Assembly (NCBI GenBank): GCA_965204635.1
Contig: OZ242001.1
Coordinates: 3,946,780 to 4,010,779 of the forward strand
From: Phototrophicaceae bacterium
Lineage (GTDB): Bacteria; Chloroflexota; Anaerolineae; Aggregatilineales; Phototrophicaceae
Length of the DNA stretch: 64,000 nt
Direction: 5' to 3'
The notes beneath the pieces are model-generated. The model was not told where the DNA came from. It was given only the letters and a program-made list of their open reading frames with translations, and ran no database searches. A program made the position numbers and the translations under genes. How positions within the stretch are numbered: the stretch's first letter is position 1; every line of letters starts with the position of its first letter. Shown here piece after piece: positions 26,349-62,526 of the stretch.

Positions 26349-27848
26349 TCAGCGCACATCGGTTTTGTAAGGCACGACATCGCATGTCGTCTGATACCAG
26401 GTCAAGAGGCGATCCCGTAAATCCGCCAGCGCCTCAGCATAGCTCGGATCATCAATGACGTTGTTGACTTCGCCCGGATCCTTGCGCAGGTCGTACAGTT
26501 CATCCAGTTCGTAAAGACGGCGCACGTATTTGTAGTTGGCTGTACGGCACATGGTCGCCTTGCTGTGTGAGCCGGATTCGCTGCGCTGCATCTCGGCGCG
26601 GGGCCAATATAAGACGCTTGGATTGTTGTAAGCCGGGCTTTCCTTTTCTTTCGCCTGCTCCTCGCCGTAGCGGCGTCCGCCTTCACAGAAAACGGCATCG
26701 CGATGGACATCGGACGAACCGGCGACCAGATCTGTCAGCGAGCGGCCGAAGTGATCGTAGCCCGGGTCAATGCCGGCCCATTCATAAGCGGTGGCGCTGA
26801 AGTCGATCAACTCGACCAGTTGATCGCGGATGCCGGGTTGAATCGCTGCATCGGCCGGCGGCTTGACGATCAAGGGGACGCGCGTCAGGCAGTCCTCAAA
26901 AGTGTTCTGCGTCTTTTCCACCAGGCCATAATCGCCGGTGAAGTCGCCATGATCGGAGAAGAAGAAGATCGCCGTGTCAGCGTAGATGCCGCTTTCCTTG
27001 AGCGCGGCGATCACCTTGCCAAACTGCGCATCGACGCGCGCGCACATGCCGTAGTAAGTGGCGCGCAGTTCGGTGAAGCGTTCTTCGCTCCAGCCTTGCA
27101 GGCCTTGCCGCTCGTAAATGCCGGCGACGAGCTTGGGCTTCTTGTCCCAGTCGGGCGCGGGGATGCGCGCTGGAAGCAGGTCACGATCGATTTGACTATA
27201 CCAGGGGTCTTCCACGCCATAAGGCGGATGCGGATAGCCCAAGGGCAGGTAGATGCAAAGCGGCTGATCGGCCGGCGCGTTGCGAATCTGTTCCACCGCG
27301 CCATCGACCATCGCCCAGTCGTTGTCGTAATAGACCTCGTCGCCGCCGCTTCCCTCTGATGCATCGGCGGGTTCGTTGGGAGCGGTCGAAAGCTTGCCGG
27401 CATAGAACGAATAATAGTTGTCGCCTTCGGGGTCGCCCCGCCAGGCGTCGGCGCGGTGCAAGTTGGGGCGGAGTTCGCGCGGCGCTTCATATTTGACATC
27501 GCAATACTCGGCGAATCCGTTTTGGCGCGGCACCAGGTCGTTCTTGCCGCCCCAGAAGACGAAGTACCCGGCATCCTTGAGGATCTTCAGCAGCACAGGT
27601 TCATCCGGCTGCAGCATGTGGAACATCGTGCGGTGGCCGCGGACGTGCGGATACCATCCGGTCATGAAGGAGCAGCGGCTGGGCGTGCAGACCGGGTTCT
27701 GGCAGAAGGCCTGGCGAAAGGAAACGGCGTCAGTCTCGATGATGCGGTCGAGGTTAGGCGTGACAGCGGCGGGATTGCCGAGGTGCCGCATGACATCCCC
27801 GCGCCATTGGTCCGGGTTGAAGATGATGATGTTAGGCCGGCTTTTCAT
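26349..27848 (-). CDS. sulfatase (formylglycine-dependent arylsulfatase family)
   Basis: ORF 26349..27890. Start placed at ATG 27848 (MKSRPNIIIFNPDQW), supported by the duplicated fragment at 28648-28741. CTPSRCSFMTGWYP contains the C-x-P-x-R formylglycine motif. Confidence 0.9.
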   Translation of the reverse strand: MKSRPNIIIFNPDQWRGDVMRHLGNPAAVTPNLDRIIETDAVSFRQAFCQNPVCTPSRCSFMTGWYPHVRGHRTMFHMLQPDEPVLLKILKDAGYFVFWGGKNDLVPRQNGFAEYCDVKYEAPRELRPNLHRADAWRGDPEGDNYYSFYAGKLSTAPNEPADASEGSGGDEVYYDNDWAMVDGAVEQIRNAPADQPLCIYLPLGYPHPPYGVEDPWYSQIDRDLLPARIPAPDWDKKPKLVAGIYERQGLQGWSEERFTELRATYYGMCARVDAQFGKVIAALKESGIYADTAIFFFSDHGDFTGDYGLVEKTQNTFEDCLTRVPLIVKPPADAAIQPGIRDQLVELIDFSATAYEWAGIDPGYDHFGRSLTDLVAGSSDVHRDAVFCEGGRRYGEEQAKEKESPAYNNPSVLYWPRAEMQRSESGSHSKATMCRTANYKYVRRLYELDELYDLRKDPGEVNNVIDDPSYAEALADLRDRLLTWYQTTCDVVPYKTDVR

Positions 27849-29581: not shown

Positions 29582-30700
29582 CTACAGCAAATCCCCCGGC
29601 AGAGGAGAGAATTCCGCATCGTAACCAAAGGCTCTCGGACCCACCACCGACAGCGCTTCAGGCGTCTTGAGTTCTTTGGGCGCCGGCATGGCCAGAACCG
29701 CCACGCGCAAGCCATAACGCAGGGACTCGGTGCCGATGGGCTCGCCGTCATCGAGCGTGACAAGCGTGAGCAAGTCGGGTACGGTGCAAAGCACTTCCCC
29801 GTTGCTGCGGGCGATCAGGTTTTCGTTCTGGAAGTCGATTTCGAGTTGCGCTACCCCCCTCGGTCCCCCCATTGCAATGGGGGGAGGCTGAATGGGATTA
29901 AAGGCGCTAATGACGAGCTTGCCGCGGGCGAAGCCTTGGACGGTGCGCCGCTCGACATCGATGATTTTGCCGGTGAAAAGCACCTTGCCGTTGCAAAGCG
30001 CGGCCACGGTCTCGGCCGGGTCGACGCTGCGGGCGCGGCAGTCCAGCACAGTCTCGCCGATGCGTTTGGCCAAGCTTACTGTATCGCGGATGACTGTTCC
30101 TTTGAGTTCGGCGCCGGTCATCACCGGCATGACAAGGGCGGCCGACCCGCCCATCTCGATGGTCATGCTGCGGGCGAATTCTTCCGCTTGTTTGGCCGAG
30201 CCAATCCGTGTGAAGATCGAGACATTGCCATGGGAATCGGCCAGGACGAAGGGCGCGGGAGCGACGCCGTAGATCATGAAGGTATCCATATCCAGCTCAG
30301 GGAAGGCGCGGCCCATGCCATCGCCATCCACGACCGGCAAGCCGAGTTGCAGCGCCGCGACCATCGGGCCCAGCGCATTGCCGCCGCCGATCTCGCCGAT
30401 GACGATGGCATAGATCTTGCGCCGCAGGTGCGCTTCCAAGGCGCGGACGGCGGTCGCGATCTCGTTGCCGGCTTGCAGCTTTTCGTTGCTGACCGTCGGC
30501 GCGCCCATGCCGCCGACGGCGCAGACCAGCGCGTCATCCGGCACATCGTCGGCTTGCACGACCTGCACGTTGCGTCCCTGCTTGCGGATTTCGTTCTCGA
30601 GCCGCAGGCGGTTGAGATAGGTGCTGCCGCCGCCGCCGGTGCCCAGAACGCCGGCGCCGATTGCGATGGCCTGTGTGTCATTTAGGGTGACTTGCTTCAT
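29582..30700 (-). CDS. DUF917-family protein (paralog d, divergent subfamily)
   Basis: 372-aa ORF. N-terminal IAIGAGVLGTGGGGSTYL glycine motif, GGMGAPTV, DGDGMGRAFPEL and C-terminal RYGLRVAVLAMP are collinear with the four other paralogs. Contains the 32-nt palindromic element in frame. Confidence 0.75.
   Translation of the reverse strand: MKQVTLNDTQAIAIGAGVLGTGGGGSTYLNRLRLENEIRKQGRNVQVVQADDVPDDALVCAVGGMGAPTVSNEKLQAGNEIATAVRALEAHLRRKIYAIVIGEIGGGNALGPMVAALQLGLPVVDGDGMGRAFPELDMDTFMIYGVAPAPFVLADSHGNVSIFTRIGSAKQAEEFARSMTIEMGGSAALVMPVMTGAELKGTVIRDTVSLAKRIGETVLDCRARSVDPAETVAALCNGKVLFTGKIIDVERRTVQGFARGKLVISAFNPIQPPPIAMGGPRGVAQLEIDFQNENLIARSNGEVLCTVPDLLTLVTLDDGEPIGTESLRYGLRVAVLAMPAPKELKTPEALSVVGPRAFGYDAEFSPLPGDLL
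29854..29885. repeat. 32-nt C6/G6/G6 palindromic element, copy inside a CDS
   Basis: CCCCCCTCGGTCCCCCCATTGCAATGGGGGGA. Encodes PPPIAMGGPRGV in DUF917 paralog d. Confidence 0.7.
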
Positions 30701-30886
30701 GGCTTGGTGAACTTGCTCATGTCAGTATGGGGAGTCCATTTCGATCCGTCGGGGAGTGTAGTTTCCTGACCGTATTTCGGGTATGCCAAATCCGCACACT
30801 TAGGATTTGCGGGTGTCAAATCCGCCGGATTTTTTCTCAGTAACACCAAGTAAGTCATGCGAAATTCAGCATAAGGTCGATATGTA

Positions 30887-30947
30887 GGGGCGACACTGTG
30901 TGTCGCCCAAGAATCCGCGCTTGCGTCGGCGGGCGACCGAATCGCCC
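30887..30947. repeat. REP-type hairpins (GTAG-headed)
   Basis: GTAGGGGCGACACTGTGTGTCGCCC and GGGCGACCGAATCGCCC. The same module is seen at 52626-52690 and inverted at 4902-4923. Confidence 0.7.
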
Positions 30948-31005
30948 CTGCAAAGTCCCATTATTTTCGCATCAATTTATCGGAACCACTTCTGTGCCTC
31001 TATTC

Positions 31006-31180
31006 CTCAGTAAGCGCAAATTAGCCGCGCAAAATCTGATTGGCATTTTGAAGTAACAGAGGGCGAGCCACCGGCTCGCCCGTACATCGAGTCTCCTATT
31101 ATGCCGTAGGGACAAGCCTTGGCTCGCCCGAATGTATGTCGCGAAAGACAATGCGCATTTTTTCAATTTCTTACTTGCGT
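31006..31180 (-). mobile_element. MITE-like composite repeat (copy 5, inverted)
   Basis: CTCAGTAAGCGCAAA...GGGCGAGCCACCGGCTCGCCCGTACA...GCCGTAGGGACAAGCCTTGGCTCGCCC...ATGCGCATTTTTTCAATTTCTTACTTGCG. Collinear reverse complement of copies at 3115, 18886 and 25253. Confidence 0.5.
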
Positions 31181-31204
31181 ATGCTTTTGCGCCTCTGTGG
31201 TGAA

Positions 31205-32284
31205 TCAAGCAAATCGCTCCTCGACAGGCACATAATCCACATCGTAGCCGAAATAGCGCGGGTGGACGAGAGCCAGCGCCGCTGGCGTCCGCCATTGCGG
31301 CGCGCAGGGAATGGCGATGACGGCGACGCGCATGCCGTAGCGCAGCGCCTCAGTTGTGATGGGCCGGGCGGTTTCGCTGTCCAAGACGGCAATCAGATCG
31401 GGCGTGGTGGCGACGAATTCGCCGTCGACGCGGACGACGAGATGTTCATTCTGAAACTCGAGCATCAGCTCCTTCCCTTCAAAGTCAGCGATGCCTTCCA
31501 TCGTCGCGCCACCGCGGGCGAAACCCGTAACTACGCGCCGATCGACATCGGAGATTTTGCCGCGAAATACGAGAAATCCGCCGACGGATCGCCGCAGGGC
31601 ATCGACCGGATCGGTCTCCGTCAAGCGGGCTTGGCGCAGGGTCTTGCCAATCTCCTCCGCCAGGGTGATTGTGCCCGGGATGGCCGTTTGCTTTAGCTGG
31701 CGTACAGTCGCCGAATATAGCGCTATCGCGCCGGTCGCCCCCATGTGCATGACGCATGAGCGGGCGAAGGTCTCCACCCACTTGTTGCTTACGGCGTTCA
31801 TCAGCAGGGTGTTGCCGCGTTCGTCGCTCATCACAAAGGGACTGGCCTGGATCCCGCCGGCCGTCATTACGGTCATTTGGATCTCGGGGAAGGCGCGGCC
31901 CATGCCGTCGCAATCGACGACCGGGATGCCCAGACGGGCGCCGACATAAATCGGCCGGATGGAGTTCATGCCGCCGGCTTCAATACTCATGGTGGCGCGC
32001 GGCGCTCGCCCCAAGAATTTGCCCAGCGCATGGAAGGCGCGGATGACATCGTGGCCTGCCGGCAGTTTTTCCACAATGACGGTGGGCGCGCCCATGCCGG
32101 CGGTTGGCACGATCAGGTCATCGTCGTCCAGTTCTTCTAGCTGGTAGAGCGCGACCGGCCCATATTGCCGAATCGCTTCCCGCGCCATCAGTTTGCCGAT
32201 GTACGGGTCGCTGCCACCGCCCGAGCCCAGCACCGCCGCGCCGATTGCTATGTCTTCAATATTGGCTTCGTCCAGCAGTCGCAC
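31205..32284 (-). CDS. DUF917-family protein (paralog c)
   Basis: 359-aa ORF, GTG start at 32284. IAIGAAVLGSGGGSDPYIGKLMAREAIRQYGP, VDCDGMGRAFPEIQM. Roughly two-thirds identical by eye to paralogs a and b. Confidence 0.8.
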   Translation of the reverse strand: MRLLDEANIEDIAIGAAVLGSGGGSDPYIGKLMAREAIRQYGPVALYQLEELDDDDLIVPTAGMGAPTVIVEKLPAGHDVIRAFHALGKFLGRAPRATMSIEAGGMNSIRPIYVGARLGIPVVDCDGMGRAFPEIQMTVMTAGGIQASPFVMSDERGNTLLMNAVSNKWVETFARSCVMHMGATGAIALYSATVRQLKQTAIPGTITLAEEIGKTLRQARLTETDPVDALRRSVGGFLVFRGKISDVDRRVVTGFARGGATMEGIADFEGKELMLEFQNEHLVVRVDGEFVATTPDLIAVLDSETARPITTEALRYGMRVAVIAIPCAPQWRTPAALALVHPRYFGYDVDYVPVEERFA

Positions 32285-32361
32285 TAACGGCCCCCATCCC
32301 TAGACCTCCCGCACAAGGAGGGAGGGGAATCAGCTTCTATTTCAGCGGATATTGCAGCATT

Positions 32362-32432
32362 GGGCCAGCCAAGGCTGACCCCTACATGGTTCACAATATG
32401 TCTGAATTGTAGGGGCGAGCCTTGGCTCGCCC
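32362..32432. repeat. two REP-type hairpins
   Basis: GGGCCAGCCAAGGCTGACCCCTAC and GTAGGGGCGAGCCTTGGCTCGCCC between DUF917 paralogs b and c. Confidence 0.7.
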
Positions 32433-32445
32433 ACCGCAGGTAAAC

Positions 32446-33528
32446 TCAAGCGCCGAAGCGCTCCTCGACCGGCACATAATCGACATCGTAGCCGAAGTAG
32501 CGCGGGTGAGCGAGTTCGAGGGCGGCCGGCAACCGCCATTGCGGCGCGCAGGGAAAAGCGATGACGGCGACGCGCATGCCATAGCGCAGCGCCTCGGTTG
32601 TGATCGGCTCGCCGGTTTCGCCATCCAGCACGGCGATGAGATCGGGCACGGTGGCGGCGAACTCGCCATCGACGCGGGCTGCCAGGTGCTCGTTTTGGAA
32701 ATCGAGGGACAGCGTCCGCCCTTCAAAGTCTTCGATGCCGGCCATTGTGGCGTCGCCGCGGTTCCAGCCGCCTTCGATGCGCCGGTCGACATCGGTGATC
32801 TTGCCGCGAAAGAGCAGGAAGCCGCCGACAGCCGCGCGCACGGCATCGACTGGATTGGCTTCGTCGCGCCGGGCCAGGCGCACCGTTTTGCCGATGTCCT
32901 CGGCGAGCGTGATCGTGCCGTGAATCGCCGCCTCCTTGAGCTGTTTCACGGTCGCCGAGTAGAGCGCGATCATGCCTTCGGCGCCCATGTGCACGACGCA
33001 GGAGCGGGCGAAAGTCTCCACCCAGTGATTGCTGACGGTGTCCATCAGCAGCACATTGCCCCGTTCATCGGACATGGCGAAGGGGCTGGCGGTGATGCCG
33101 TGGGCGGTGAATATCGTCATCTGGATCTCGGGGAAGGCGCGGCCCATGCCATCGCAATCGACCATGGGGATGCGCAGCCGGGCGGCGACATAAATCGGCA
33201 TGACCGAGTTGAGACCGCCGGCTTCAATGCTCATGGTGCCGCGCGGCTCTCGACCGGAATATCGGCCCAGCGCCTCAAAGGCGCGTATCATGTCATCGCC
33301 GGCCGGCAGCTTCTCCACAATCACGATAGGCGCGCCCATGCCGGCAGCCGGCACGATCAGGTCGTCGTCATCGAGCTCGTCCAGCGTGTAAAGTTCAACC
33401 GGGCCGTATTGCCTGATGGCTTCGCGCGCCATCAGTTTGCCGACGTAGGGATCGCCGCCGCCACCGGTACCCAGCACGGCGGCGCCCAGGGCGATGTCTT
33501 CAATGTTTTCTTCGTGCAGCAGTCGCAT
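32446..33528 (-). CDS. DUF917-family protein (paralog b)
   Basis: ORF 32446..33597. Start placed at the second ATG of ATGATG (33528; MRLLHEENIEDIALGAAVLGTGGGGDPYVGK), with AAGGAAG upstream. Confidence 0.8.
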   Translation of the reverse strand: MRLLHEENIEDIALGAAVLGTGGGGDPYVGKLMAREAIRQYGPVELYTLDELDDDDLIVPAAGMGAPIVIVEKLPAGDDMIRAFEALGRYSGREPRGTMSIEAGGLNSVMPIYVAARLRIPMVDCDGMGRAFPEIQMTIFTAHGITASPFAMSDERGNVLLMDTVSNHWVETFARSCVVHMGAEGMIALYSATVKQLKEAAIHGTITLAEDIGKTVRLARRDEANPVDAVRAAVGGFLLFRGKITDVDRRIEGGWNRGDATMAGIEDFEGRTLSLDFQNEHLAARVDGEFAATVPDLIAVLDGETGEPITTEALRYGMRVAVIAFPCAPQWRLPAALELAHPRYFGYDVDYVPVEERFGA

Positions 33529-33563
33529 CATTCTTCCTTTTCCGTGGCCCTCATTCGGCTTGC

Positions 33564-33584
33564 GGGCGACCCACCGGGTCGCCC
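33564..33584. repeat. REP-type hairpin
   Basis: GGGCGACCCACCGGGTCGCCC followed by CTAC, between DUF917 paralogs a and b. Confidence 0.7.
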
Positions 33585-33638
33585 CTACCAACGTCAAATT
33601 TCAACTATCCGGTAGGGTTCAGCCGGTGGCTGTCCCGC

Positions 33639-34721
33639 TCAAGCGCCGTATCGTTCTTCGACCGGGACATATTCAGCGTCGTAGCCAAAATAAGCCGGTC
33701 CGACGATTTCCAGTCCCTTGGCTGTGCGCCATTTGTCGGCGCAGGGGATGGCGATAATGGCGACGCGGAAGCCGTAGCGCAATGCCTCGGTCGTGATCGG
33801 TTCGCCCGTATCTACATCCAGCACGGCCAGCAGATCAGGCACGGTCACTTTGAATTCCCCATCGATGCGCGCGGCCAGGTGTTCGTTCTGGAAGCTCAAC
33901 TGGAGCTTCTGCCCGGCGTATTCGTCGATGCCATCGATGAAGGCGTCGCCTTTGGCGAAGCCGGCCTCGGTGCGGCGTTCCACATCGCCGATTTTGCCTT
34001 TGAATATCAGGAAGCCGCCGACCGCCTCGCGGATGGTTTCCACCGGTTCATCTTCTTCCAGCCGGGCGCGGCGCACCACTTTGCCGATCTCCTCGGCCAG
34101 CGTGATCGTGCCCGGGATGGCGGCTTCGCGCAATTCGGCCGCGGTGGCGGCGTAAAGGGCGATCATCGCCATCGCGCCCATATTGACGGTGACGCTGCGG
34201 GCGAATGTCTCCGTCCACAAATTGCTGATCGTCTCCATCAGCACGGTGTTGCCGCGCTCATCGGACATGGCGAAGGGCGTCGAGGAGATGCCGTGGATCG
34301 TGTGCGTGACCATCTGGAGCTCGGGGAAAGCGCGGCCCATGCCATCGCAATCGACCATGGGCACGCGCAGGCGGGCGGCGCAATAGATCGGCACGACCGA
34401 GTTCAAGCCGCCGGCTTCAATACTCATCGTCGCCTTCACCGGCTGCCCGATGTACTTGCCCACCGAAAGGAAGGCGTTGACGATATCATCGCCGTTTGGC
34501 ACTTTCTCGACCATGACGGTCGGCGCGCCCATCATCGCCGTTGGCACGACCAGATCGTCGTCGTCAAGTTCGTCGAGGCTGTAAAGCTCGACCGGGCCAT
34601 AATCTCGGATGGCTTGCCGCGCCATCAATTTGCCGATGTAGGGGTCGCCGCCGCCGCCCGTGCCCAGGACGGCCGCGCCCAGCGCCAGATCTTCCAGGAC
34701 CGCTTCGTCAATGATTCGCAT
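33639..34721 (-). CDS. DUF917-family protein (paralog a)
   Basis: ORF 33639..34958. True start ATG 34721 (MRIIDEAVLEDLALGAAVLGTGGGGDPYIGK) overlaps the hydantoinase TAA as TAATG. GGAGG sits 6 nt upstream. Confidence 0.8.
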   Translation of the reverse strand: MRIIDEAVLEDLALGAAVLGTGGGGDPYIGKLMARQAIRDYGPVELYSLDELDDDDLVVPTAMMGAPTVMVEKVPNGDDIVNAFLSVGKYIGQPVKATMSIEAGGLNSVVPIYCAARLRVPMVDCDGMGRAFPELQMVTHTIHGISSTPFAMSDERGNTVLMETISNLWTETFARSVTVNMGAMAMIALYAATAAELREAAIPGTITLAEEIGKVVRRARLEEDEPVETIREAVGGFLIFKGKIGDVERRTEAGFAKGDAFIDGIDEYAGQKLQLSFQNEHLAARIDGEFKVTVPDLLAVLDVDTGEPITTEALRYGFRVAIIAIPCADKWRTAKGLEIVGPAYFGYDAEYVPVEERYGA

Positions 34722-36292
34722 TACTTCCCTCCATTCAATGGGGGGACCGAGGGGGGTGTCGCTAAATCGCCGATGGCTTTGACCATGATGCGCGTGGCGT
34801 TGCCGGGCAAATAGGCCAAGGGCACTTCTTCCACATCGACGATTTCGATGCTTTCGGCGCTGGCGCCGGCATTCACAGCGCGCTCGCTCGCCTCCGCTTT
34901 GGCTTGGTCCAGGGCGTCGGTCCGGCTGAGCTCGGCCAGAGAGAAGATGCGGTCGCATTCACCTCCCACCTGGGCGATGGCCGCGCCGATGGCATTGGCG
35001 ACCGGGAAGTGATCGGGTTTGATGATCTCCGATGCGCCTTCGATTGCGCCGGTGACCAGGATGCTGCCGCCGCCGACCACGATGACCGGCACCGGCGTCG
35101 CGCTGGTTTTCATGCGGTCAACAGCGATGGCAATCATCTCCATAATCCGCGCTTGCACGGCGGAGACGAGCGACGCATCAAGGCGGCTGACGGCGCTTGC
35201 GTCGCCGATATCTTCCGAGCCACCGGCCACAATAACATCGGTGGCGGTTAAAACATCGCCGCCGAAGACCAGCGCCTTCTCCGTTAGCTCGTAGCCGACG
35301 CTGCGAGGCCCGACTTTGAGCGGGTCGCTTTCGATCAGGCTGCCGCCGCCCAGACCGATGGAGTAGGTATCGGGCATGCGGAAGTTGGTCCGCACGCCGC
35401 CGATATCAACCGCCAGGGCGGCCACGCGCGGGAAACCATGCTGCAGCACGCCGATATCGGTTGTCGTCCCGCCGACATCGACGACGATGGCATCGCGCAA
35501 GCCGCTAAGAAAAGCCGCGCCGCGCATGCTGTTGGTCGGGCCCGAGGCGAAGGTCAACACCGGGTATTCTTTGGCGAAGTCGGCGTTCATCAACGTGCCG
35601 TCATTCTGGCTGATGTAGAAGGGCGCCTCGATGTTCAACTCGTCCAGAGCGGCTTTGAAGCCGTCTACGGTGCGCGCCGCCAATTGCCGCAGGCAAGAAT
35701 TCATGATGGCGGCATTCTCTCGCTCGAGCAGGCCGATGCGCCCGATCTCGCTCGAGAGCGTGATATTGGCGCCGGGGATGACCGAACGCACGATCTCCGC
35801 GCTCTGTTCTTCAAATGTCGAGTTGACCGGCGAGAACACGGATGAGATAGCGATGGCATCCAGGCCGGCATCACGAATCTTCTGCGCGATTTCACGCACT
35901 TCTTCGGGCTGATAAGCCGAGATTTCCCGCCCATCGAATTCGTGCCCGCCATGCGCCAGATGCGCCTCGCCGCCGACAATCTCCCGCAGGTCATCGGGCC
36001 AATCCACCATCGGCGGCAAGCAGACGGTCGCCGGCAAGCCGAGGCGGATGCAGGCGGTCGGCGTCAAATGCTTGCGTTCGACCACGGCATTTGTGAAATG
36101 CGTCGTGCCGATCATCACGCCATCGATCTTGGCGCGATCGATGCCCGAATCCTCGATCACTTCTCGCAGGGCTTTGGCGATGCCCTCCGATACATTGGCG
36201 GTCGTGGGCGTCTTGGTTGAACTGACGACGGCCGCGCCATCCATCAAGACGGCGTCGGTGTTGGTCCCGCCGACATCTACTCCGATTCTCAT
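34721..36292 (-). CDS. hydantoinase/oxoprolinase family protein (HyuA-like, ASKHA fold)
   Basis: ORF 34721..36418. Start ATG 36292 (MRIGVDVGGTNTDAVLMDG). Second phosphate motif VVDVGGTTTDIGVL. About 524 aa. No HyuB-like partner in the window. Confidence 0.8.
   Translation of the reverse strand: MRIGVDVGGTNTDAVLMDGAAVVSSTKTPTTANVSEGIAKALREVIEDSGIDRAKIDGVMIGTTHFTNAVVERKHLTPTACIRLGLPATVCLPPMVDWPDDLREIVGGEAHLAHGGHEFDGREISAYQPEEVREIAQKIRDAGLDAIAISSVFSPVNSTFEEQSAEIVRSVIPGANITLSSEIGRIGLLERENAAIMNSCLRQLAARTVDGFKAALDELNIEAPFYISQNDGTLMNADFAKEYPVLTFASGPTNSMRGAAFLSGLRDAIVVDVGGTTTDIGVLQHGFPRVAALAVDIGGVRTNFRMPDTYSIGLGGGSLIESDPLKVGPRSVGYELTEKALVFGGDVLTATDVIVAGGSEDIGDASAVSRLDASLVSAVQARIMEMIAIAVDRMKTSATPVPVIVVGGGSILVTGAIEGASEIIKPDHFPVANAIGAAIAQVGGECDRIFSLAELSRTDALDQAKAEASERAVNAGASAESIEIVDVEEVPLAYLPGNATRIMVKAIGDLATPPSVPPLNGGK
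34727..34759. repeat. 32-nt C6/G6/G6 palindromic element, copy at hydantoinase 3' end (opposite orientation, one arm degenerate)
   Basis: Plus strand TCCCTCCATTCAATGGGGGGACCGAGGGGGG. Encodes the last residues PPSVPPLNGGK of the hydantoinase-like gene and contains the SD of the next gene. Confidence 0.65.
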
Positions 36293-36356: not shown

Positions 36357-37802
36357 CTAGTAAGTCCACCACCAGGTCTCCGGGTTGCCGATGTTGCGGA
36401 TGATGGCGAGATACCCATAGTGATTCTGGTAGGGCGCGATGAGGTTCAAAAGCGCATACTGCGCTTCGACGCAGGGCAACTCATTCTGCCAGCCGATGGC
36501 GCTTTGCGTGTAGGCTCGCTGCTGGGCGGAATGGCAGGCTTCGTGGATGAGGCTGCTGGCGGCGTCCACGATGTCGCCCATGCTTGGCGCCGCATCCGGA
36601 TTGTCGCTGTGCCGGTAACTGATGTCGACTATCCACTGCCGATTCAAAAAGCCGGCGCCGCCCCCATTCGGCGACATTTGAATCTTGCGCACGCCGCTGT
36701 TGTACAGATATTGCAACCAAGCCGGCGCTCTGTTCTGCATGAGTTCGAGCGTCTTGTTGATCAGATCGACGAAGCTCCGATTGCCTTCGATTTCCGGGCG
36801 CGTTCCAAGCGGCGCCGGGTGAACGCACTGGTTCGCCCGATACTGATGCCCGCCTTGCGCCCATTGGTCGGGGGTATGGCATGTGGCGTAATTCATGTAA
36901 CAGCAGTTGTCAAAGGGACGGGAGGTATCGCGGCCCAGGCCGAATGATCGCATCGTTTGCGGCGTGGCATTCAAGTTGCGCGCAACCTGAGAAACACGAT
37001 ACTGCGTGTGATAGCAGATGTTGTGCCGGAACGTCCAATAGCCGTCATTGAAATCCACATCGCTATGGCAATCCCAGCCCAGGGAGCAGCAGTTGTCCGC
37101 CCGCCCTGCAGCGCCACCCACGGGCGCGCCGCATTGATTATTCTGGTAAGCCCAATAGCCGTCTTGCCATTCCTGGTCGCTGTTGCATTGCCTGTCAACG
37201 AAGCAGCAATTGTCGACGGCTGCGGTTGCGCTGCTCACCGGCTGTACGGAGCTTTCTTGCCCGGCTGTCGCCCCGCTCGGGCATTGATTATTCTGGTATG
37301 CCCAATAGCCGTCTTGCCATTCCTGATCGCTGTTGCATTGCCGGTCCACGAAACAGCAATTGTCGACGCTGGCGGCTGTGCTTACGGTCGGCTGCACGGC
37401 GCTTTCCTGCCCGGCGGGCGCCCCGACCGGGCACTGATTGCGCTGGTAAGCCCAATAGCCATCGATCCAGTCTTTGTTGCTGTGGCACTGCCGGTCCACA
37501 TAGCAACAGTTGTCTACTTCCGCGGCCGCCGGCGCCTGGCTGCTCTGCGTCACGCGACGGTGCCCGACCCAACTCGCCATCCAAAGCTCGCGCCCGTTCC
37601 GGTTGATCTTTAGCCAGCGGTTGTAACTGTCGATGACTTGCAGAATGCTGCCAGCCGGCGCGGATTCGACCACGGCGCTCTCGAGGCTGTAGCCGGCGCG
37701 CAGATTCGTGTTGAATTCGACGCGTATCGAATAACCCTGCGCCATTGCGACATGGCAAAAAATGAAGATTGCAATTAAAACCGAGAATCGCATTGCTTTC
37801 AT
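36357..37802 (-). CDS. secreted Cys-rich repeat protein with SH3b-like N-terminal domain and C-terminal HExxH motif
   Basis: ORF 36357..37826. Start probably ATG 37802 or 37793 (MKAMRFSVLIAIFIFCHVAMAQ signal peptide). Five copies of a 28-aa module DNCC-x5-C-x15/16-C (e.g. DNCCFVDRQCNSDQEWQDGYWAYQNNQC). LIHEACHSAQQ near the C-terminus. Confidence 0.7.
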   Translation of the reverse strand: MKAMRFSVLIAIFIFCHVAMAQGYSIRVEFNTNLRAGYSLESAVVESAPAGSILQVIDSYNRWLKINRNGRELWMASWVGHRRVTQSSQAPAAAEVDNCCYVDRQCHSNKDWIDGYWAYQRNQCPVGAPAGQESAVQPTVSTAASVDNCCFVDRQCNSDQEWQDGYWAYQNNQCPSGATAGQESSVQPVSSATAAVDNCCFVDRQCNSDQEWQDGYWAYQNNQCGAPVGGAAGRADNCCSLGWDCHSDVDFNDGYWTFRHNICYHTQYRVSQVARNLNATPQTMRSFGLGRDTSRPFDNCCYMNYATCHTPDQWAQGGHQYRANQCVHPAPLGTRPEIEGNRSFVDLINKTLELMQNRAPAWLQYLYNSGVRKIQMSPNGGGAGFLNRQWIVDISYRHSDNPDAAPSMGDIVDAASSLIHEACHSAQQRAYTQSAIGWQNELPCVEAQYALLNLIAPYQNHYGYLAIIRNIGNPETWWWTY

Positions 37803-37988
37803 AGGTCGAAAGTCCTGTAGCTTCAATCCGCTAAAAGAAATCCTAGTATGTCAGCGATGCCGATGCAAAGCAATCAATCCGCCGCATTGCGGACCGACCG
37901 GATGCACGGAGGGCTCGGTGTTGCGATGGGGAAACTTGGCGGCCGTCCCGCAGGCGAAGTCGAATTGAGCCATTTGTGGCTCATTTCG

Positions 37989-39672: not shown

Positions 39673-40824
39673 TTAGATCCCCGGATGCAAGCCAATCACC
39701 CCGCCGGGCAGGGGCCGAAAGGGCGCATCGTAACCAAAGGCGCCGGGACCGACTACCTGCAGCGCGGCCTCGCTCTTGAGCTGGGGCGGTGCCGGCGCCG
39801 TTATGACGGCGACCCGCGTCCCATAGCGCAGCGCTTCGGTCGTGACCGGCTCGCCTTCCTCTTCCGTCACGATACATATCAGATCTGGCGTGGTCGCCGC
39901 AACTTCTCCATTGAGACGGGCGATCAGGAATTCGTTCTGAAATTCAATTTCCAGCACCCCCCTCGGTCCCCCCAATGCATTGGGGGGATGTTGCTTGGGA
40001 TCAAAAGCGCTGATTCGCACTTTTCCACGGGCGAAACCTTTGGTCGTGCGCCGCTCCACATCGGCAATCTTGCCGCGAAAGATGACCTGGCCATCCAGCG
40101 CGGCCGCCACCACCGGCGGCACATCGGACTTTTGCGCCTGGGCTTCGATGACCCGGGCGCCGAGGCGGCGCGCCAGGCTCAGGGTATAGTGCACGCCGGC
40201 GCATTTGACTTGCGCGCCCGTCATGATCGTGCCGGCCAGGCCGGCGCGCGCGCCCATGCTGACGGCGATATTGCGGGCGATCTTTTCCGCCCAGACATCG
40301 CTGACCGCCGCCGGAACCACCGCGGCATTATCGGCGGCGTCGACCATCGCCAGGGGCGCGGCGGTGGCGCTGGTATCGAAGAGGAAGGACGACATCTGGA
40401 TTTCGGGAAATGCCCGGCCCATGCTGTCGCTGTCAACGGTCGGGATGCCGACCTGCAAGCCCCCGATCAGCGGCTGCATGGAATTGGCGCCGCCAATCTC
40501 GGCGATGGCGATCGCGTCGAAGCGGCGGCCGATATGCGCCTCCAGCAGGCGGATTGCCCGCATCATCTCCGTGCCTTCCGGCAGTTTCTCAATGCTGACC
40601 GTCGGCGCGCCGATGCTGCCGACTACGCAGCACAAGGCGTCGTCCGCCAAATCAAACGGGTCGATGATCGCTTGCGGGCCCTTCTCGCGAATTACCGACG
40701 CCAGGTGCAAGCCGCCGAGGTAAGGGTTGCCGCCGCCGCCCGTGCCCAGGATGCCGGCGCCGATCCCGATCGGCCGGATATCATCCAGGGTCACTTCCCG
40801 CAGCAGACCGCGTTCTCCGTCCAT
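39673..40824 (-). CDS. DUF917-family protein (paralog e, divergent subfamily)
   Basis: ORF 39673..40989. Start ATG 40824 (MDGERGLLREVTLDDIRPIGIGAGILGTGGGGNPYLGG). Closest to paralog d and carries the same in-frame palindromic element. Lies 14 nt after the Gfo/Idh/MocA gene. Confidence 0.75.
   Translation of the reverse strand: MDGERGLLREVTLDDIRPIGIGAGILGTGGGGNPYLGGLHLASVIREKGPQAIIDPFDLADDALCCVVGSIGAPTVSIEKLPEGTEMMRAIRLLEAHIGRRFDAIAIAEIGGANSMQPLIGGLQVGIPTVDSDSMGRAFPEIQMSSFLFDTSATAAPLAMVDAADNAAVVPAAVSDVWAEKIARNIAVSMGARAGLAGTIMTGAQVKCAGVHYTLSLARRLGARVIEAQAQKSDVPPVVAAALDGQVIFRGKIADVERRTTKGFARGKVRISAFDPKQHPPNALGGPRGVLEIEFQNEFLIARLNGEVAATTPDLICIVTEEEGEPVTTEALRYGTRVAVITAPAPPQLKSEAALQVVGPGAFGYDAPFRPLPGGVIGLHPGI
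39957..39988. repeat. 32-nt C6/G6/G6 palindromic element, copy inside a CDS
   Basis: CCCCCCTCGGTCCCCCCAATGCATTGGGGGGA. Encodes HPPNALGGPRGV in DUF917 paralog e. Confidence 0.7.
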
Positions 40825-47862: not shown

Positions 47863-49419
47863 CTAACAGCCTTCCATCCACAGGTCCTGGAAGAGCGCGG
47901 TCAGCGGGTACATCGGCGAGTAGACAAACCCTTTCACGCAGGTATTGAGCGCGAAGCTGCTGTCCTCGGTATACATCCAGACCGAGGGCTGCTCGGCGGA
48001 GATGAGTTCCTGCGCTTCCGTGTACATCGCTTGCCGCGTCTCGGCGTCGCCGATTGTGCGCGCCTGGTCCAGCAGTTCATTCACCCGATCATTCTGGTAG
48101 AAGCTGCAGGAATTGAAGCTGCCCCATTGGTCCGAGTGATACTGGTTGTAGAGATGCGCGTCCGGATCCAGGAAGGGCGGCAAGGTGTAGATGTTGATGA
48201 TATCCGGACCCGTATCCGGCGTGGCGCAACTTGCGACCATATCGGGCCAGAGCATCGGGATCATGTTGAGCTCAATACCGATCTCGGCCAAGCCTTCCAG
48301 CAGAATCAGCCCCGGGATTTCTTCGCGCGGGAATTCGGTCACGTAGACGTAGTCCAGCGTGATGCCGCCCTCGGGCCAGGCCGACTGCGCCAGATGGGCG
48401 CGCGCCGCGTCCAGATCATAAGTCGGGTAGCTCAAGCCTTCGACATAGCCGACAAAGTTGGCCGGCGTTGGCCCAGGCAATACTGTGATCTTGACGTCTT
48501 GCGCGTCAACCATCGCATCGTAGTTCATGGCATGGGCGATAGCCTTGCGCAAGTGGATATCGCTGGTGTACTCGCCCAGGTTGTTCATCTTGAGGGTATT
48601 GGTGAAGAAGCCGCCATGCTCTTCCCAAACGTGATCCGGGGAATCGATAATCTTTTCCTTATCGCTCGCGGCGACGGTATCGGCGATATGAGTTTCACCT
48701 GCCAGCAGCGAATTCAACTGAGTAGAGGCGTCGCGCTGGATGATCCAGAAGAAGCCGTCCAGGTGATCGTCGCCGGTCCAGCCCGCCCAGTAATCGTCGA
48801 CAGCGACGAACTCGTAGATATTGCCGATTTCCCACCGCCCTTGCGTGAAGGGACCGGAACCGGCCGCGTTTTCCTTTAGGAAAGTCTGGCCCATGTCATC
48901 GCCCAGGTTGGCTTCGACGATAGCCGGGTTGACCACGAAAAGCTGCGGCAGCGTGCCGATGAAGGGGGCGTAGGGCTGGGTGAGCGTGAATTGAACGGTA
49001 TGTTCATCGAGGGCCTGCGCCGAATTCTCATCGGTGATTGTTTCCCAGCGCCAGGTCGGCGGGCCGGAGATCGCCATCGCGCGGTTGAAGCTGTAAACGA
49101 CGGCATCGGCGGTCACCGGGCTGCCATCGTGGAAGACGGCGTTGTCGTGCAGGGTGAAGGTCCAGACGGTGGCGTCATCGTTGACTTCATGGCTCTTCAC
49201 GAGATGCGGAATGGTATCGCTGCCGCGATAGATGTACAGCGCGTCATACAGGCTGCGCAAGGCGGCGTTGATCGAATAATTCTCGCCGGTTGCCGGGTCG
49301 ATATTGTCGATATCCTGGTTGCCGCCGTAGAGCAGGATATCGTCTTGGGCGACGGCGACGGACGACGTGAAAAGCGCGAGGCTCAACACTAGCAGTGCAA
49401 ATGTGACACGTCGAAACAT
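47863..49419 (-). CDS. ABC transporter substrate-binding protein, family 5 (DppA/OppA-like)
   Basis: ORF 47863..49797. True start ATG 49419 (MFRRVTFALLVLSLALFTSSVAVAQ, signal peptide) preceded by AAGGAG. About 518 aa, typical size and composition of SBP_bac_5. Confidence 0.85.
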   Translation of the reverse strand: MFRRVTFALLVLSLALFTSSVAVAQDDILLYGGNQDIDNIDPATGENYSINAALRSLYDALYIYRGSDTIPHLVKSHEVNDDATVWTFTLHDNAVFHDGSPVTADAVVYSFNRAMAISGPPTWRWETITDENSAQALDEHTVQFTLTQPYAPFIGTLPQLFVVNPAIVEANLGDDMGQTFLKENAAGSGPFTQGRWEIGNIYEFVAVDDYWAGWTGDDHLDGFFWIIQRDASTQLNSLLAGETHIADTVAASDKEKIIDSPDHVWEEHGGFFTNTLKMNNLGEYTSDIHLRKAIAHAMNYDAMVDAQDVKITVLPGPTPANFVGYVEGLSYPTYDLDAARAHLAQSAWPEGGITLDYVYVTEFPREEIPGLILLEGLAEIGIELNMIPMLWPDMVASCATPDTGPDIINIYTLPPFLDPDAHLYNQYHSDQWGSFNSCSFYQNDRVNELLDQARTIGDAETRQAMYTEAQELISAEQPSVWMYTEDSSFALNTCVKGFVYSPMYPLTALFQDLWMEGC

Positions 49420-49582
49420 GACTATCTCCTTTGCGATAGATTGGAAAATAGGCCGTAGAATCTGTAATCTGCGCCGTAGTTTAACGAAATTCGCTAAGGC
49501 TTGCAATTCAGCGGCGGGCAGCGCATACTGGCGCCGATGTAGCCAAATCGGTCCGGCTGCGAGGCGCGAAGGAGTTATCTGC

Positions 49583-50599
49583 ATGCGAGTGATCCAAGTC
49601 GGCATCGGCGGAATGGGCGACACCTGGCTGCGCGCTGTGCAAAATTCGGAGAGCGTCGACTTCGCCGGCTTCGTCGAGATCAACGACGGCATCGCGCGCG
49701 CCCAAGCCGAAGCGCACCAGCTCGATCGCTCGCTGATTTTCCGGTCCCTGCCCGAGGCGCTCGCGCGCGTGGAAGCCGATGCCGTCATCAACGTCACGCC
49801 GCCGGATGTTCACCGCGAAATAAGCATCGCCGCCCTGGAAGCGGGCTTGCCAGTGCTGACCGAGAAACCGCTGGCGGGCAACCTGGAGGACTCGAGGGCG
49901 ATTGTCGCGGCGGCCGAAGCAACCGGCGTCTTGTGCAGCGTCGCCCAGAATTATCGCTATCGCCCGCTGGCGCAGACGGTCAAGTCTGCGCTGGACGGTT
50001 CCGATCTGGGCCGGGTTGGCGCGGTACGCGTCGAGTTCTACCGGGGGCCGCATTTTGGCGGCTTCCGCGAAGAGATGGCCCAGCCGCTGATCATCGACAT
50101 GTCCATTCATCACTTCGACATGATGCGCCTTTTCCTCGGCAGCGACGCCACAAAGATAAGCGCGCGCAGTTGGAATCCGTCCTGGAGTTGGTTCAAGGGC
50201 GACGCCAGCGCGGCCGCGCAGATCGGCTTCGCTAATGGCGTCGAGGTCAGCTACAGCGCCTCTTGGTGTTCACAAGCTTGGGAGACCAGTTGGAACGCGA
50301 ACTGGCGCTTTGACTGCGAGCGCGGCGTACTGCTGGTCGAGGATGACAAGGTCTTCATGCAGCAACTGCTCAGCGCAGGCGATGGCGAGCGGGGCCGCGC
50401 CAACAAGCATAGCGAAAAGCGGGAACTGCCGCTGCTCCCGATGGCGCGCGAAAGCCAGGATTACCTGCTGCAGGAGTTCTATGAAGCGGTGAAGCGGGGC
50501 GCGCCCACCGCCACAACGGCGCAGGACAACCTCAAGACGATGGAATTCGTTTTTGGGGTGGAGCAAGCCTGCGACAGCGGTCAGCCAGTCAAGCTCTAA
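49583..50599 (+). CDS. Gfo/Idh/MocA family oxidoreductase
   Basis: ORF 49367..50599. Start ATG 49583 preceded by GAAGGAG. MRVIQVGIGGMGDTW Rossmann motif and PVLTEKPL motif. Confidence 0.85.
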   Translation: MRVIQVGIGGMGDTWLRAVQNSESVDFAGFVEINDGIARAQAEAHQLDRSLIFRSLPEALARVEADAVINVTPPDVHREISIAALEAGLPVLTEKPLAGNLEDSRAIVAAAEATGVLCSVAQNYRYRPLAQTVKSALDGSDLGRVGAVRVEFYRGPHFGGFREEMAQPLIIDMSIHHFDMMRLFLGSDATKISARSWNPSWSWFKGDASAAAQIGFANGVEVSYSASWCSQAWETSWNANWRFDCERGVLLVEDDKVFMQQLLSAGDGERGRANKHSEKRELPLLPMARESQDYLLQEFYEAVKRGAPTATTAQDNLKTMEFVFGVEQACDSGQPVKL

Positions 50600-51256
50600 G
50601 GCGTCGCCTGCTCACAGCCCTCATCCCGCTATCTCTTCGGCGGGCAATTCCACTACCAGAAATTCCAGGCTGATCCTGCGCGAGAATGGCTTCCCCCCAT
50701 TGCTATGGGGGGATTGAGGGGGGTTCGTCGCGCAAGCCTGCGACAGCGGTCAGCCAGTCAAGCTCTAAGGCGTCGCCTGCTCACAGCCCTCATCCCGCTA
50801 TCTCTTCGGCGGGCAATTCCACTACCAGAAATTCCAGGCTGATCCTGCGCGAGAATGGCTTCCCCCCATTGCTATGGGGGGATTGAGGGGGGTTCGTCGC
50901 GCAAGCCTGCGACAGCGGTCACCCAGTCAAGCTCTAAGGCGTCGCCTGCTCACAGCCCTCATCCCGCTATCTCTTCGGCGGGCAATTCCAGTACCAAAAA
51001 TTCCAGGCTGATCCTGTGCGAGAATGGCTTCCCCCCATTGCTATGGGGAGATTGAGGGGGGTTCGTCGCGCAAGCCTGCGACAGCGGTCAGCCAGTCAAG
51101 CTCTAAGGCGTCGCCTGCTCACAGCCCTCATCCCACTATCTCTTCGGCGGGCAATTCCAGTACCAAAAATTCCAGGCTGATCCTGCGCGAGAATGGCTTC
51201 CCCCCATTGCTATGGGGGGATTGAGGGGGGTTCGTCGCGCAAGCCTGCGACAGCGG
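50563..51256. repeat. tandem array, 169-bp unit x ~4.1, beginning inside the 3' end of the oxidoreductase CDS
   Basis: GCAAGCCTGCGACAGCGGTCAGCCAGTCAAGCTCTAA recurs at 50563, 50732, 50901, 51070 and (partial) 51239. Units differ by a few substitutions. Each unit carries one copy of the 32-nt C6/G6/G6 element (50692, 50861, 51030, 51199). Confidence 0.9.
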
Positions 51257-51289
51257 CGAGACGGTCAGTCTGTAGGGAGCCGCCCTCTC

Positions 51290-54137: not shown

Positions 54138-54685
54138 CCCGGCCCCTCCTCGAAGCATCGGCTGCGGAGCGGACACGTTTACGTCTGCCGCGATATCGCA
54201 GCAAAACCTGGAATGATTTTAGTGATTTTCAGTCGTCCCTACAATTTACGCCATGTAGGGGTCAGCCATTGGCTGACCCGCCGCTATCCTACCACGTTGC
54301 ATTAAACATGTCCGCTGCTCCCCGAAGCATCGGCTGGGGAGCGGACACCTTTACGTCTGCCGTGATATCGGTGCAAAATCTGGAATTGTTTCGGTGATTT
54401 TCGATCGCCCCTGCAATTTACGCCATGTAGGGGTCAGCCATTGGCTGACCCGCCGCTATCCTACCATGTTGCATCAAACATGTCCGCCGCTGCCCGAAGC
54501 ATCGGCTACGGAGCGGGCACCTTTAGGTCAGCCGTGAAATCGCTGCAAAACCTGGAATGCTTTTAGTGATTTTCGGTCGCCCCTGCAATTTACGCCATGT
54601 AGGGGTCAGCCATTGGCTGACCCGCCGCTATCCTACCATGTTGCATCAAACATGTCCGCCGCTGCCCGAAGCATCGGGCAGGGCC
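54138..54685. repeat. tandem array, 172-bp unit x ~3.2
   Basis: GTAGGGGTCAGCCATTGGCTGACCC recurs at 54255, 54427 and 54599. Unit starts (GTCCGC...) are at 54310, 54482 and 54654. Each unit has a REP-like hairpin plus a second hairpin GTCCGCTGCTCCCC-GAAGCATCGGCT-GGGGAGCGGAC. Confidence 0.9.
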
Positions 54686-54931
54686 GACTCTAGCGCCGAG
54701 ATTAAATCTACAAGAATCTTTTCGCAATGTGCTGAATCGGACAATCGCCTGAAATTGTATTTTCGCCAAAGAGACACAAAGATTTTACTACCGAGGACAC
54801 CGAGATAGAAAGATAAACTGGTCTCTCTCTGCGCCCTCTGCGTTCTCTGTAGTTTGAATTTAGTCTGCGCCCTCTGCGATCTCTGTAGTTAGATTTTATT
54901 TTGAATTTGCTGCAATTCATGCAGGCTTGCG

Positions 54932-62237: not shown

Positions 62238-62269
62238 ATAGGGATCCTAGGATTAGTGTGCGATTGAGA

Positions 62270-62526
62270 GGGCGAGCCACCGGCTCGCCCGTACAGATCA
62301 GCGTTTGGCGGGCGACGCGATTGTCGCCCATACAGATTTTCATTTAGCGGGCGAGCCAAGGCTCGCCCCTACAAACTTACGATTGGCGGACGATGCGACT
62401 GTTGCCCCTACAGATTTTCATTTGGCGGGCGAGCCAATGGCTCGCCCCTACAGATCGACATTTGGCGGGCGAGCCAATGGCTCGCCCCTACAGATCAACA
62501 TTTGGCGGGCGACGCAAGGGTCGTCC
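62270..62526. repeat. tandem array of seven REP hairpins, ~40-bp period (BIME-like)
   Basis: GGGCGAGCC-NNNN-GGCTCGCCC-type hairpins start at 62270, 62310, 62349, ~62385 (degenerate), 62427, 62467 and 62507. They are separated by a conserved linker CTACAGATnnnCATTTGGC. Confidence 0.9.

Follow-up and report, generated by a model that had tools for sequence, protein, structure and literature searches.

The window analysed here is a 64,000-nt stretch of contig OZ242001.1 (GenBank assembly GCA_965204635.1, positions 3,946,780 to 4,010,779) from a Phototrophicaceae bacterium of the Chloroflexota. It carries five DUF917 (S-Me-THD) paralogs, four of them consecutive (29582-34721) after a hydantoinase gene and one 5 kb off (39673-40806), and a short element of the form T-CCCCCC-N8-GGGGGG-AYYGA-GGGGGG that is present in 7 copies at four independent sites. 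A pattern search for CCCCCC-N8-GGGGGG-N5-GGGGGG, allowing up to 2 mismatches, gave 7 matches in the window; the chance expectation is 0.01, and 7 matches were reached in none of 100 dinucleotide-preserving shuffles. Rescanning the window with a covariance model trained on 56 foreign copies returned the same seven and nothing else. When aligned with 60-nt flanks, the copies are homologous over approximately 33-43 nt only, with sharp edges and unrelated flanks. A sequence-only reading of this DNA, made without database searches, had already listed the seven copies, and its account of their sites was accurate in each detail checked.

Two of the copies lie within DUF917 genes on the minus strand. 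The copy in paralog d (29582..30700, minus strand; PF06032/PF20906) occupies 29848..29890 (core match 29854-29884), scores 61.5 bits with the covariance model and encodes PPPIAMGGPRGV, residues approximately 271-282. That in paralog e (39673..40806, minus strand) occupies 39951..39993 (core match 39957-39987), scores 52 bits and encodes HPPNALGGPRGV. A degenerate copy with a TCCCTCC arm sits at the junction of the hydantoinase gene (hydantoinase/oxoprolinase-family protein, 34721..36292, minus strand; PF01968, PF05378) and DUF917 paralog c, at 34721..34762 on the plus strand, opposite to the genes (core match 34726-34756, 2 mismatches; 35.5 bits). The other four, all on the plus strand, are found in a tandem array: copy 1 has an ATTGA spacer (50687..50729, core from 50693, 60.1 bits), copy 3 is a GGGGAG variant (51025..51067, core from 51031, 49.6 bits), and copies 2 (50856..50898, core from 50862) and 4 (51194..51236, core from 51200) match both the pattern and the covariance model. 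The central box changes between ATTGCAAT and AATGCATT, both of which preserve the palindrome, as had been proposed. In addition, a sulfatase gene contains a decayed relic of a reverse-oriented copy (approximately 27351..27383, minus strand; …STAPNEPADASEGSGG…), which was not detected by the covariance model in the window scan. A sulfatase ortholog (L060) has the copy in intact form (AACCCCCCTCGGTCCCCCCGACGAGTCAGGGGGA) at this position, and the relic aligns with it gap-free.

Alignment of the five DUF917 paralogs bears out the earlier observation that d and e contain extra residues just before the FQNE motif that are missing from paralogs a-c, 11 in d (PPPIAMGGPRGV) and 9 in e (HPPNALGGPRGV). 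The element is identical at 29/31 positions between d and e, compared to 64.5% for the rest of the genes, 67-79% for the nearest 30-60 nt and 63-79% for the flanks overall, depending on the window chosen, so that the DNA around the element has indeed diverged more than the element itself. The 120 closest homologs of d (73-100% identity) have lengths of 360/361, 370-372, 381-384 or 392-399 amino acids, and among these best 120 all length variation occurs at one alignment site, just before LEIDFQNE. Orthologs with an empty site, which the sequence-only reading had proposed to look for, are common: a short loop (e.g., FDDFDQQLEID) is present in 63 of the 120 d homologs, and approximately 72 of 120 e orthologs are empty. 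Because the short loop resembles that of paralogs a-c, the empty site is ancestral. The remaining d homologs have one element (PQHPPNALGGPRGV), a reversed element (TPLGPPNALGGS), tandem copies or compound inserts, and the remaining e orthologs contain forward, reverse, triple tandem or nested copies.

The turnover is also visible between close relatives, since d, e and hydantoinase orthologs that are 90-99% identical in their flanks may have or lack the element at the same sites, or carry it in a different orientation or number of copies. DNA comparison shows that the insert is absent from P0005, a 91%-identical d ortholog, and two sequences from one metagenome, P0108 and P0113, differ by exactly 39 nt, i.e., one element, with few mismatches in the aligned flanks. 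At the same d site, L129 carries the reverse complement A-CCCCCC-TCGGT-CCCCCC-AATGCCTT-GGGAGG-AAG, and L122 and L123 have a second element nested in the first, with a 21-nt insertion within the C-run. In L128 only a remnant is left (…CCGACGACGAT…) while a 98.6%-identical relative is full, a pattern consistent with microhomology deletion followed by decay. The AlphaFold model of d (mean pLDDT, the predicted local distance difference test score, 88.4) has residues 271-281 below 50, between strands 257-265 and 285-291. In this model, the element peptide is a low-confidence loop within a beta-hairpin, the type of surface loop expected for Rickettsia palindromic elements (RPEs) and predicted by the sequence-only reading. 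The alignment with the PDB homolog 2O3I ends at residue 265, short of the insert. Other in-frame palindromic families occupy the same hot sites (L123, approximately 1300-1420; L127, approximately 1120-1230; hydantoinase orthologs). One of these has the form CCCCTCTCCC…GGGAGAGGGG with the peptide YPTPDPSPTGWRGESKV, another contributes approximately 30 residues (SPHPKSLPHKEGGTS…SPSLLVGEGAGGWG), and a third insert, of 21 nt (QGQCLRD), splits the C-run of the element. In a further relative (L121, 221-2544), each of two upstream DUF917 paralogs is divided into an N-terminal and a C-terminal ORF (open reading frame), in a frameshift-like manner.

At the hydantoinase 3' end, where an oppositely oriented copy had been noted, the reverse complement of the copy encodes the C-terminus TPPSVPPLNGGK up to the stop codon, i.e., the last 12 residues of the protein. 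The same copy yields GGAGGGAAGTAATG, in which GGAGG, resembling a Shine-Dalgarno sequence, precedes the DUF917c ATG by six bases; stop and start codons of the two genes overlap as TAATG. Most hydantoinase orthologs end in ...DLVEA and a stop codon, and approximately 20 have the element-encoded extension PPSVPPMNGGK before the stop. In a 95%-identical relative, the spacer between hydantoinase and DUF917c is 77 nt long and contains a REP (repetitive extragenic palindrome) of the GTAG type, where the window has the element in its place. Three internal sites of the hydantoinase gene are hypervariable as well, with the element and other palindromic families.

Taking all copies together, the full unit is approximately 38-40 nt and reads GCTT-C6-NN(loop)NN-G6-AYYGA-G6-T(AG). 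Flank logos show C at -3 (92%), T at -1 (96%) and T at +1 (91%), with TAGACC frequently coming next. This length agrees with the 39-nt difference between P0108 and P0113 and with the 39-40-nt period of intergenic arrays in L074 (see below). In 56 distinct copies of the subtype found in the window, the N8 segment forms two additional base pairs that close a 4-nt loop. The search pattern does not constrain these two pairs (AU 29, UA 14 and GC 11 for one; UA 36, AU 12 and CG 2 for the other), 98.7% of cells are paired, and the observed covariation was reached by none of 500 shuffles. The proximal C6:G6 hairpin is under selection, backed by this covariation; as single-stranded DNA this hairpin has a computed energy of about -10 kcal/mol. 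The sequence-only reading had drawn two alternative hairpins, with C6 pairing to either G6 run. The proximal one stands, with two pairs more than proposed, and the distal G6 is better read as a third arm, and as the outer end of the inverted repeats around DUF559 genes described below. A second subtype, C7...G7, has an extra upstream C-run, giving a symmetric two-tier hairpin. Three-arm repeats of this general kind are the intrastrand triplex motifs: BoxC of Bachellier, recognised first in E. coli, PIT (Hoyne/Maher 2000) and TMECO (Holder et al. 2015) (PMC4666352). Rfam gave no match for the whole window at the gathering threshold or for the array at E<=10, and a tRNA/tmRNA scan found none.

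We next consider the distribution of the element outside the window. Public genomes, one per species, were scanned with the pattern CCCCCC-N8-GGGGGG-A-NN-GA-GGGGGG, and all statistics on foreign copies refer to the matches listed. At least 120 stretches with at least 130 copies were obtained, compared to fewer than one expected by chance according to our own estimate, so that this search, wider than the genome-wide one suggested by the sequence-only reading, places the motif far beyond paralogous or duplicated contexts. The matches are mostly from Chloroflexota (Anaerolineae, Aggregatilineales, Phototrophicaceae, Caldilineaceae and many unclassified Chloroflexota metagenome-assembled genomes, MAGs), together with Cyanobacteria (Microcoleus, Nostoc, Coleofasciculus, Pseudanabaena), Planctomycetota, Desulfuromonadales and a few more. 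The motif is also present in 13 contigs classed as viral, including L132 and L134 (IMGVR_UViG_3300042731_011251); one 41-kb viral contig has it twice. In an Aggregatilineales chromosome (L074, OY760098.2), the element itself is arrayed in tandem at two intergenic positions (988-1120 and 2580-2850). One array comprises approximately seven units of 39-40 nt just upstream of a start codon, and the other run consists of partial units (TGACTCGAC-G6-ACCGA-G6), one per 27 nt. Searches of the available literature gave no match for the exact motif sequence and no paper on in-frame palindromes of Chloroflexi.

Within long ORFs that have coding-like GC1/2/3, the element is read in all six frames, giving peptides of the types PPxxxGGxRG[GV], SPPxxGGTEGG, FPPxFGGDRGG, PPSVPPxxGGE, PPLSPPxxKGG and PPQSPPxxGG. 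Judging by their translations, read by eye, the host ORFs look like aminoacyl-tRNA synthetase, NuoL, ThiL, ValRS, alpha-2-macroglobulin and ABC transporters. The unit of 36-39 nt is stop-free in every frame in its ACCGA-spacer variant, and its peptides are rich in Pro and Gly. Such a unit would therefore persist in genes only at permissive surface loops or gene ends, which would explain why the d/e loop and four hydantoinase sites have been refilled repeatedly. The repeated filling of one loop in two paralogs would thus reflect a selection filter for 12-13 floppy residues, although a genuine target preference may also be at work. The central proposal of the sequence-only reading, a small palindrome that is mobile or selected for its structure, enters ORFs in both orientations and behaves like an RPE, is supported by the six frames, the turnover and the loop. 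What had been named beforehand as evidence to the contrary did not appear: many orthologs have an empty loop, and the motif occurs in many unrelated contexts.

The tandem array (50563-51256, plus strand; 169 bp x 4.1, 98% matches) lies between convergent genes and has one element per 169-bp unit, as the sequence-only reading had described. Each unit is made up of the last 36 nt of the gene at 49367..50599 (…QACDSGQPVKL and stop), approximately 94 nt, the element and approximately 8 nt. Directly after the array is a diverged second copy of the gene 3' end (51240..51275, plus strand), the last 12 codons reading QACDSGETVSL and stop. The two gene ends share an identical stretch of 18 nt (GCAAGCCTGCGACAGCGG), beyond which similarity falls sharply. 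From the sequences, the gene end after the array is probably the ancestral C-terminus, pushed aside by the duplicated segment. Versions of the array-side gene end in relatives are ACDSAQTVNLD and ACETGEPVQLSG, each followed by a stop codon. The nearest relatives (70-73% identical), from metagenomes, have no array and different downstream DNA, and the ancestral state was not recovered from them. Tandem duplication around hairpin repeats fits the published instability of triplex motifs, in which case the element may have had a causal role.

The window contains further repeats. A second intergenic tandem array (54142-54677, 172 bp x 3.1, 90% matches) has a GTAG-REP (GTAGGGGTCAGCCATTGGCTGACCC) in each unit, so that both arrays of approximately 170 bp have one palindromic repeat per unit; it is followed by an intergenic 36-nt direct repeat in two copies (54828-54898; TCTGCGCCCTCTGCGATCTCTGTAGTTAGAATTTAG). 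At 62263-62523, approximately six GTAG-type REPs (reverse complement GTAGGGGCGAGCCATGGCTCGCCC) are spaced by 39-40 bp, resembling a bacterial interspersed mosaic element. Classical GTAG-REPs (54.2 kb, 62.3 kb) are therefore present alongside the C6/G6/G6 element. Finally, a 150-nt tandem repeat (37131-37499; 2.5 copies, 82% matches) within the ORF at 36357..37826 encodes Cys-rich modules (…DNCCFVDRQCNSDQEWQDGYWAYQNNQC…).

In the loci examined around copies, the one small gene that recurs in association with the element is a nuclease gene. At two unrelated loci (L030 and L096), an ORF of 137-143 amino acids is bracketed by inverted element copies with their G6 tails pointing outward, giving cassettes of approximately 0.6 kb (L030, 265-848; L096, 1866-2378). 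A third cassette (L114, approximately 7000-7520) is orthologous to L096 but pseudogenised, having lost 4 nt and acquired an in-frame stop. The inverted arms at the three loci are 35-41 nt long and 89-98% complementary, the TAGACC end included. The bracketed ORF belongs to DUF559 (PF04480, E about 1e-37) and so encodes a Vsr-like PD-(D/E)XK nuclease, and the L030 and L096 proteins are just 56-59% identical. In approximately 1.3 Mb of loci around copies there are 3 close inverted pairs with outward tails, and 2 of these have DUF559 inside. All-against-all ORF clustering of 120 loci gave no other small ORF family recurring beside copies, RAYTs (REP-associated tyrosine transposases) not having been searched for; the recurrent families near copies look like housekeeping genes, none of them transposase-like, when the translations are read by eye. 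No DUF559 relative was confirmed in the viral contigs with the motif.

DUF559 genes of other bacteria show a similar arrangement, each with its local type of three-arm repeat. In a cyanobacterial MAG (L061), a C7-GG-C6-loop-G6 copy is located 30 nt past the stop codon of a DUF559 gene. Public plasmid records of Pseudanabaena have DUF559 bracketed by CCCCCCAGAATTGGGGGGCTAGGGGGG repeats (arms 35-40 nt, 97-100% complementary), and Picosynechococcus PCC 7002 has a stand-alone DUF559 gene bracketed by inverted three-arm repeats. The gene is likewise bracketed on plasmids of Deinococcus aetherius, D. proteolyticus and D. psychrotolerans (arms 35-56 nt, 86-98% complementary), with the D. psychrotolerans cassette located between paaD and paaZ. 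In Neisseria, Sinorhizobium and Azospirillum, copies of three-arm repeats adjoin a DUF559 gene. In E. coli KE47 (L230, 680-935), the ycjD ORF ends within BoxC/TMECO (…LSPSPQPSP and stop), with two more copies within 250 nt, and the supplementary table of Holder et al. has TMECO #9 between fabI and ycjD (PMC4666352). A search of the available literature found no paper tying DUF559 to three-arm repeats. The layout parallels that of REPtrons and, by analogy, suggests that DUF559 nucleases may maintain or spread three-arm repeats.

These data make it likely that the element is a gene-invading, homopolymer variant of the three-arm, triplex-type repeats, i.e., selfish, non-autonomous and structurally unstable DNA. 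The C6:G6 hairpin folds on single-stranded DNA, as the covariation indicates, and by analogy with the published family the second G-run may fold back onto it to give a G·G:C triplex. Copies are gained, inverted, tandem-duplicated, nested and lost, probably by microhomology deletion, with structure-induced slippage possibly occurring at the element. More tentatively, DUF559 could be the missing partner of BoxC/PIT/TMECO and the C6/G6/G6 element, with the cassette of approximately 0.6 kb being autonomous and the solo copies its offspring. The master copy could in that case be the cassette itself, a DUF559 gene between two inverted elements, although we regard this step as speculative. Similarly conjectural is the possibility that the nuclease recognises the folded element and nicks or cuts it, its ends then being copied to other sites through repair or strand invasion.

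Several observations weigh against this interpretation. We found no target-site duplication or clean insertion junction in pairs of filled and empty sites, and since the codons beside the d insert differ, replacement, gene conversion and an old insertion followed by drift are indistinguishable there. No transposition event was seen, and gain and loss are inseparable in several pairs (e.g., P0108/P0113). The genic fraction, 92 of 135 copies (68%) within stop-free ORFs of at least 150 codons versus 84% of random positions, is a crude measure taken from raw ORFs in GC-rich DNA. Loop 1 of the element, taken at its nominal 8 nt, is longer than the 1-6 nt of the published motifs. As for the nuclease, two Synechocystis DUF559 genes are without flanking repeats, the 64-kb window contains no DUF559 gene, and the association comes from a small sample of approximately 14 independent loci without a formal genome-wide control.

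The fuzzy junctions, the replaced neighbouring codons and the missing target-site duplication would all be accounted for if there were no transposition at all, and a few ancient insertions had been spread by homologous recombination or gene conversion and resized by replication slippage. The difference between P0108 and P0113 can be explained by recombination in the shared 20-nt 5' part of tandem copies, and the tandem partial units of L074 and the deletion remnant of L128 would fit as well. However, a unit of approximately 38 nt occurs in dozens of unrelated genes and intergenic sites in several phyla, each of which must have required a first non-homologous insertion. In addition, the flanks of d and e are only 63-79% identical, so that there is no recent conversion tract, and both orientations are found at one site. 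We therefore consider this explanation rather unlikely. An ordinary REP, moved by a RAYT in the same way as the GTAG-REPs, would fit the size and palindromic form of the element. GTAG-REPs are reported in Chloroflexi, Cyanobacteria and PVC (Planctomycetes-Verrucomicrobia-Chlamydiae) bacteria, some of them in frame in ORFs (PMC3733652), and classical ones are present in this window (54.2 kb, 62.3 kb); moreover, approximately one-third of type-A copies end in ...GGGGGG-TAG, spelling GTAG. That GTAG is, however, located on the 3' side of the hairpin, separated from it by the spacer and the second G-run, whereas REPs have it immediately 5' of the stem. REPs also lack anything equivalent to the conserved third arm and, unlike the element, are not frequent within genes. 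No transposase-like family recurs in the loci around copies (with RAYTs not searched for), the bracketed gene being DUF559. An ordinary REP is for these reasons unlikely.

The covariation of the stem is also what would be expected of a signal selected by the host and arising in place, such as an mRNA hairpin, a ribosome-binding module, a terminator, a protein-binding site or a Pro/Gly loop. Several copies precede start codons by 3-8 nt, where GAGGGGGG could serve as a Shine-Dalgarno sequence (L004, L057, L096, L114), and the hydantoinase copy provides DUF917c with its GGAGG. Nevertheless, the element is read in six frames and lies on both strands, within genes and between convergent genes; close strains lack it at every site examined; copies decay in place; there is no Rfam match (E<=10); and the published family is without promoter or terminator activity (PMC4666352). 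Such a signal is consequently very unlikely. Some sequencing platforms are prone to errors in G and C homopolymers, which raises the question of an assembly or sequencing artefact. The same unit, however, recurs across many independent assemblies, among them records titled chromosomes, is always in frame in conserved genes and shows compensatory changes in the stem, making an artefact barely credible.

Some established types of element were considered and rejected. Miniature inverted-repeat transposable elements, which have terminal inverted repeats, are ruled out by size, the unit being 38 nt compared to 70-300 bp, and by the lack of a target-site duplication at any filled/empty pair. Neither a consistent target, as IS200/IS605-style insertion on the 3' side of a fixed site would require, nor a TA or TT duplication is evident from the flank logos and the filled/empty pairs. 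A G-quadruplex was set aside given that there are two G-runs only, as was an uptake-signal sequence, given that copies arise by insertion and not by point mutation. Removal at the RNA level by splicing or bypass was likewise set aside, as genic copies keep the reading frame and avoid stops.

Regarding the gene-invading, three-arm reading that we prefer, GC-rich repeats with three arms have been on record since the 1990s (BoxC), are triplex-forming and mark unstable loci, while their function and spread are unexplained. In the window, the element lengthens a loop in two DUF917 paralogs, rewrites the C-terminus of the hydantoinase and supplies a downstream ribosome-binding site. A homopolymer element thus shows RPE-like behaviour over a much wider taxonomic range, writing 11-13 Pro/Gly-rich residues into loops of enzymes. 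This affects annotation, studies of protein evolution and the quality control of MAGs, as ortholog lengths will step by approximately 12 residues. The bracketing of DUF559 in five phyla provides a testable candidate enzyme for this entire class of repeats. It also offers a first hypothesis on the function of a large domain family to which E. coli YcjD belongs. If the hypothesis were true, each DUF559 nuclease would recognise the folded repeat of its own lineage, and the solo copies, including the translated ones, would be non-autonomous offspring. This would amount to a second, independent REP/RAYT-like system, with another nuclease fold and triplex-forming DNA, ranging from E. coli to Chloroflexota.

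How does the element compare with known repeats? Cyanobacterial small dispersed repeats, reported by Elhai et al. in 2008, are said to be 21-27 nt long and described only in Nostocaceae. From their description, the basis for this comparison, they are likewise dispersed hairpin repeats of less than 40 nt that show presence/absence and nesting, without an obvious transposase. RPEs, reportedly described by Ogata et al. in 2000, are said to be palindromic repeats of approximately 100-150 bp that are restricted to Rickettsia. The element resembles RPEs in its in-frame presence in functional genes, tolerated surface peptides and presence or absence among orthologs, but differs in its length of approximately 38 nt, its occurrence in several phyla and its three-arm architecture of G and C runs, which RPEs do not have. 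REPs are 20-40-nt palindromes tagged GTAG or CGTC beside the stem, and some are intragenic (Di Nocera et al., PMC3733652). In the element, GTAG is found in approximately one-third of copies and only after the spacer and the second G-run. The likeness to REP/RAYT systems lies in a short GC-rich hairpin, many solo copies and a small nuclease-type gene bracketed by inverted copies; the differences are that the bracketed gene is DUF559 and not an HUH tyrosine transposase, the extra third arm and the many more genic copies.

The intrastrand triplex motifs are defined in the ITxF search by a stem of at least 6 nt and loops of 1-6 nt (PMC4666352). TMECO belongs to class II (C-G-G), with the consensus CCCTCNCCC-N3-6-GGGNGAGGG-N3-GGGNGAGGG; it is approximately 37 nt long and highly conserved, occurs on either strand and often as inverted pairs, and is abundant in Enterobacteria and Cyanobacteria (PMC4666352). 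Its folding into a triplex has been shown in vitro, and it is overrepresented at loci that have undergone rearrangement (PMC4666352). In E. coli K-12 it is solely intergenic, and no link to mobile elements was found; the family has neither promoter nor terminator activity (PMC4666352). All 7 window copies and at least 130 foreign copies have the C6/G6/G6 blocks of class II. Loop 2 of the element, with 5 nt, is within the published limit, and loop 1 is 8 nt long or, counting the extra pairs as stem, 4 nt. The element departs from the TMECO/BoxC consensus in that its arms are the homopolymers C6 and G6 and not CCCTCNCCC/GGGNGAGGG. Its spacer is 5 nt (A-NN-GA) compared to 3 nt in TMECO, and it has two extra covarying pairs. 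While TMECO in E. coli is reported from intergenic sites only, the element is often in genes (two window copies within DUF917, one at a gene end). Its host range is centred on Chloroflexota, unlike that of TMECO, and the DUF559 association is not part of the TMECO work. Nonetheless, the element and the triplex motifs are alike in their scale of approximately 37 nt, their strong conservation, their multiple copies on either strand and in inverted pairs, their presence in Cyanobacteria and their link to rearrangement.

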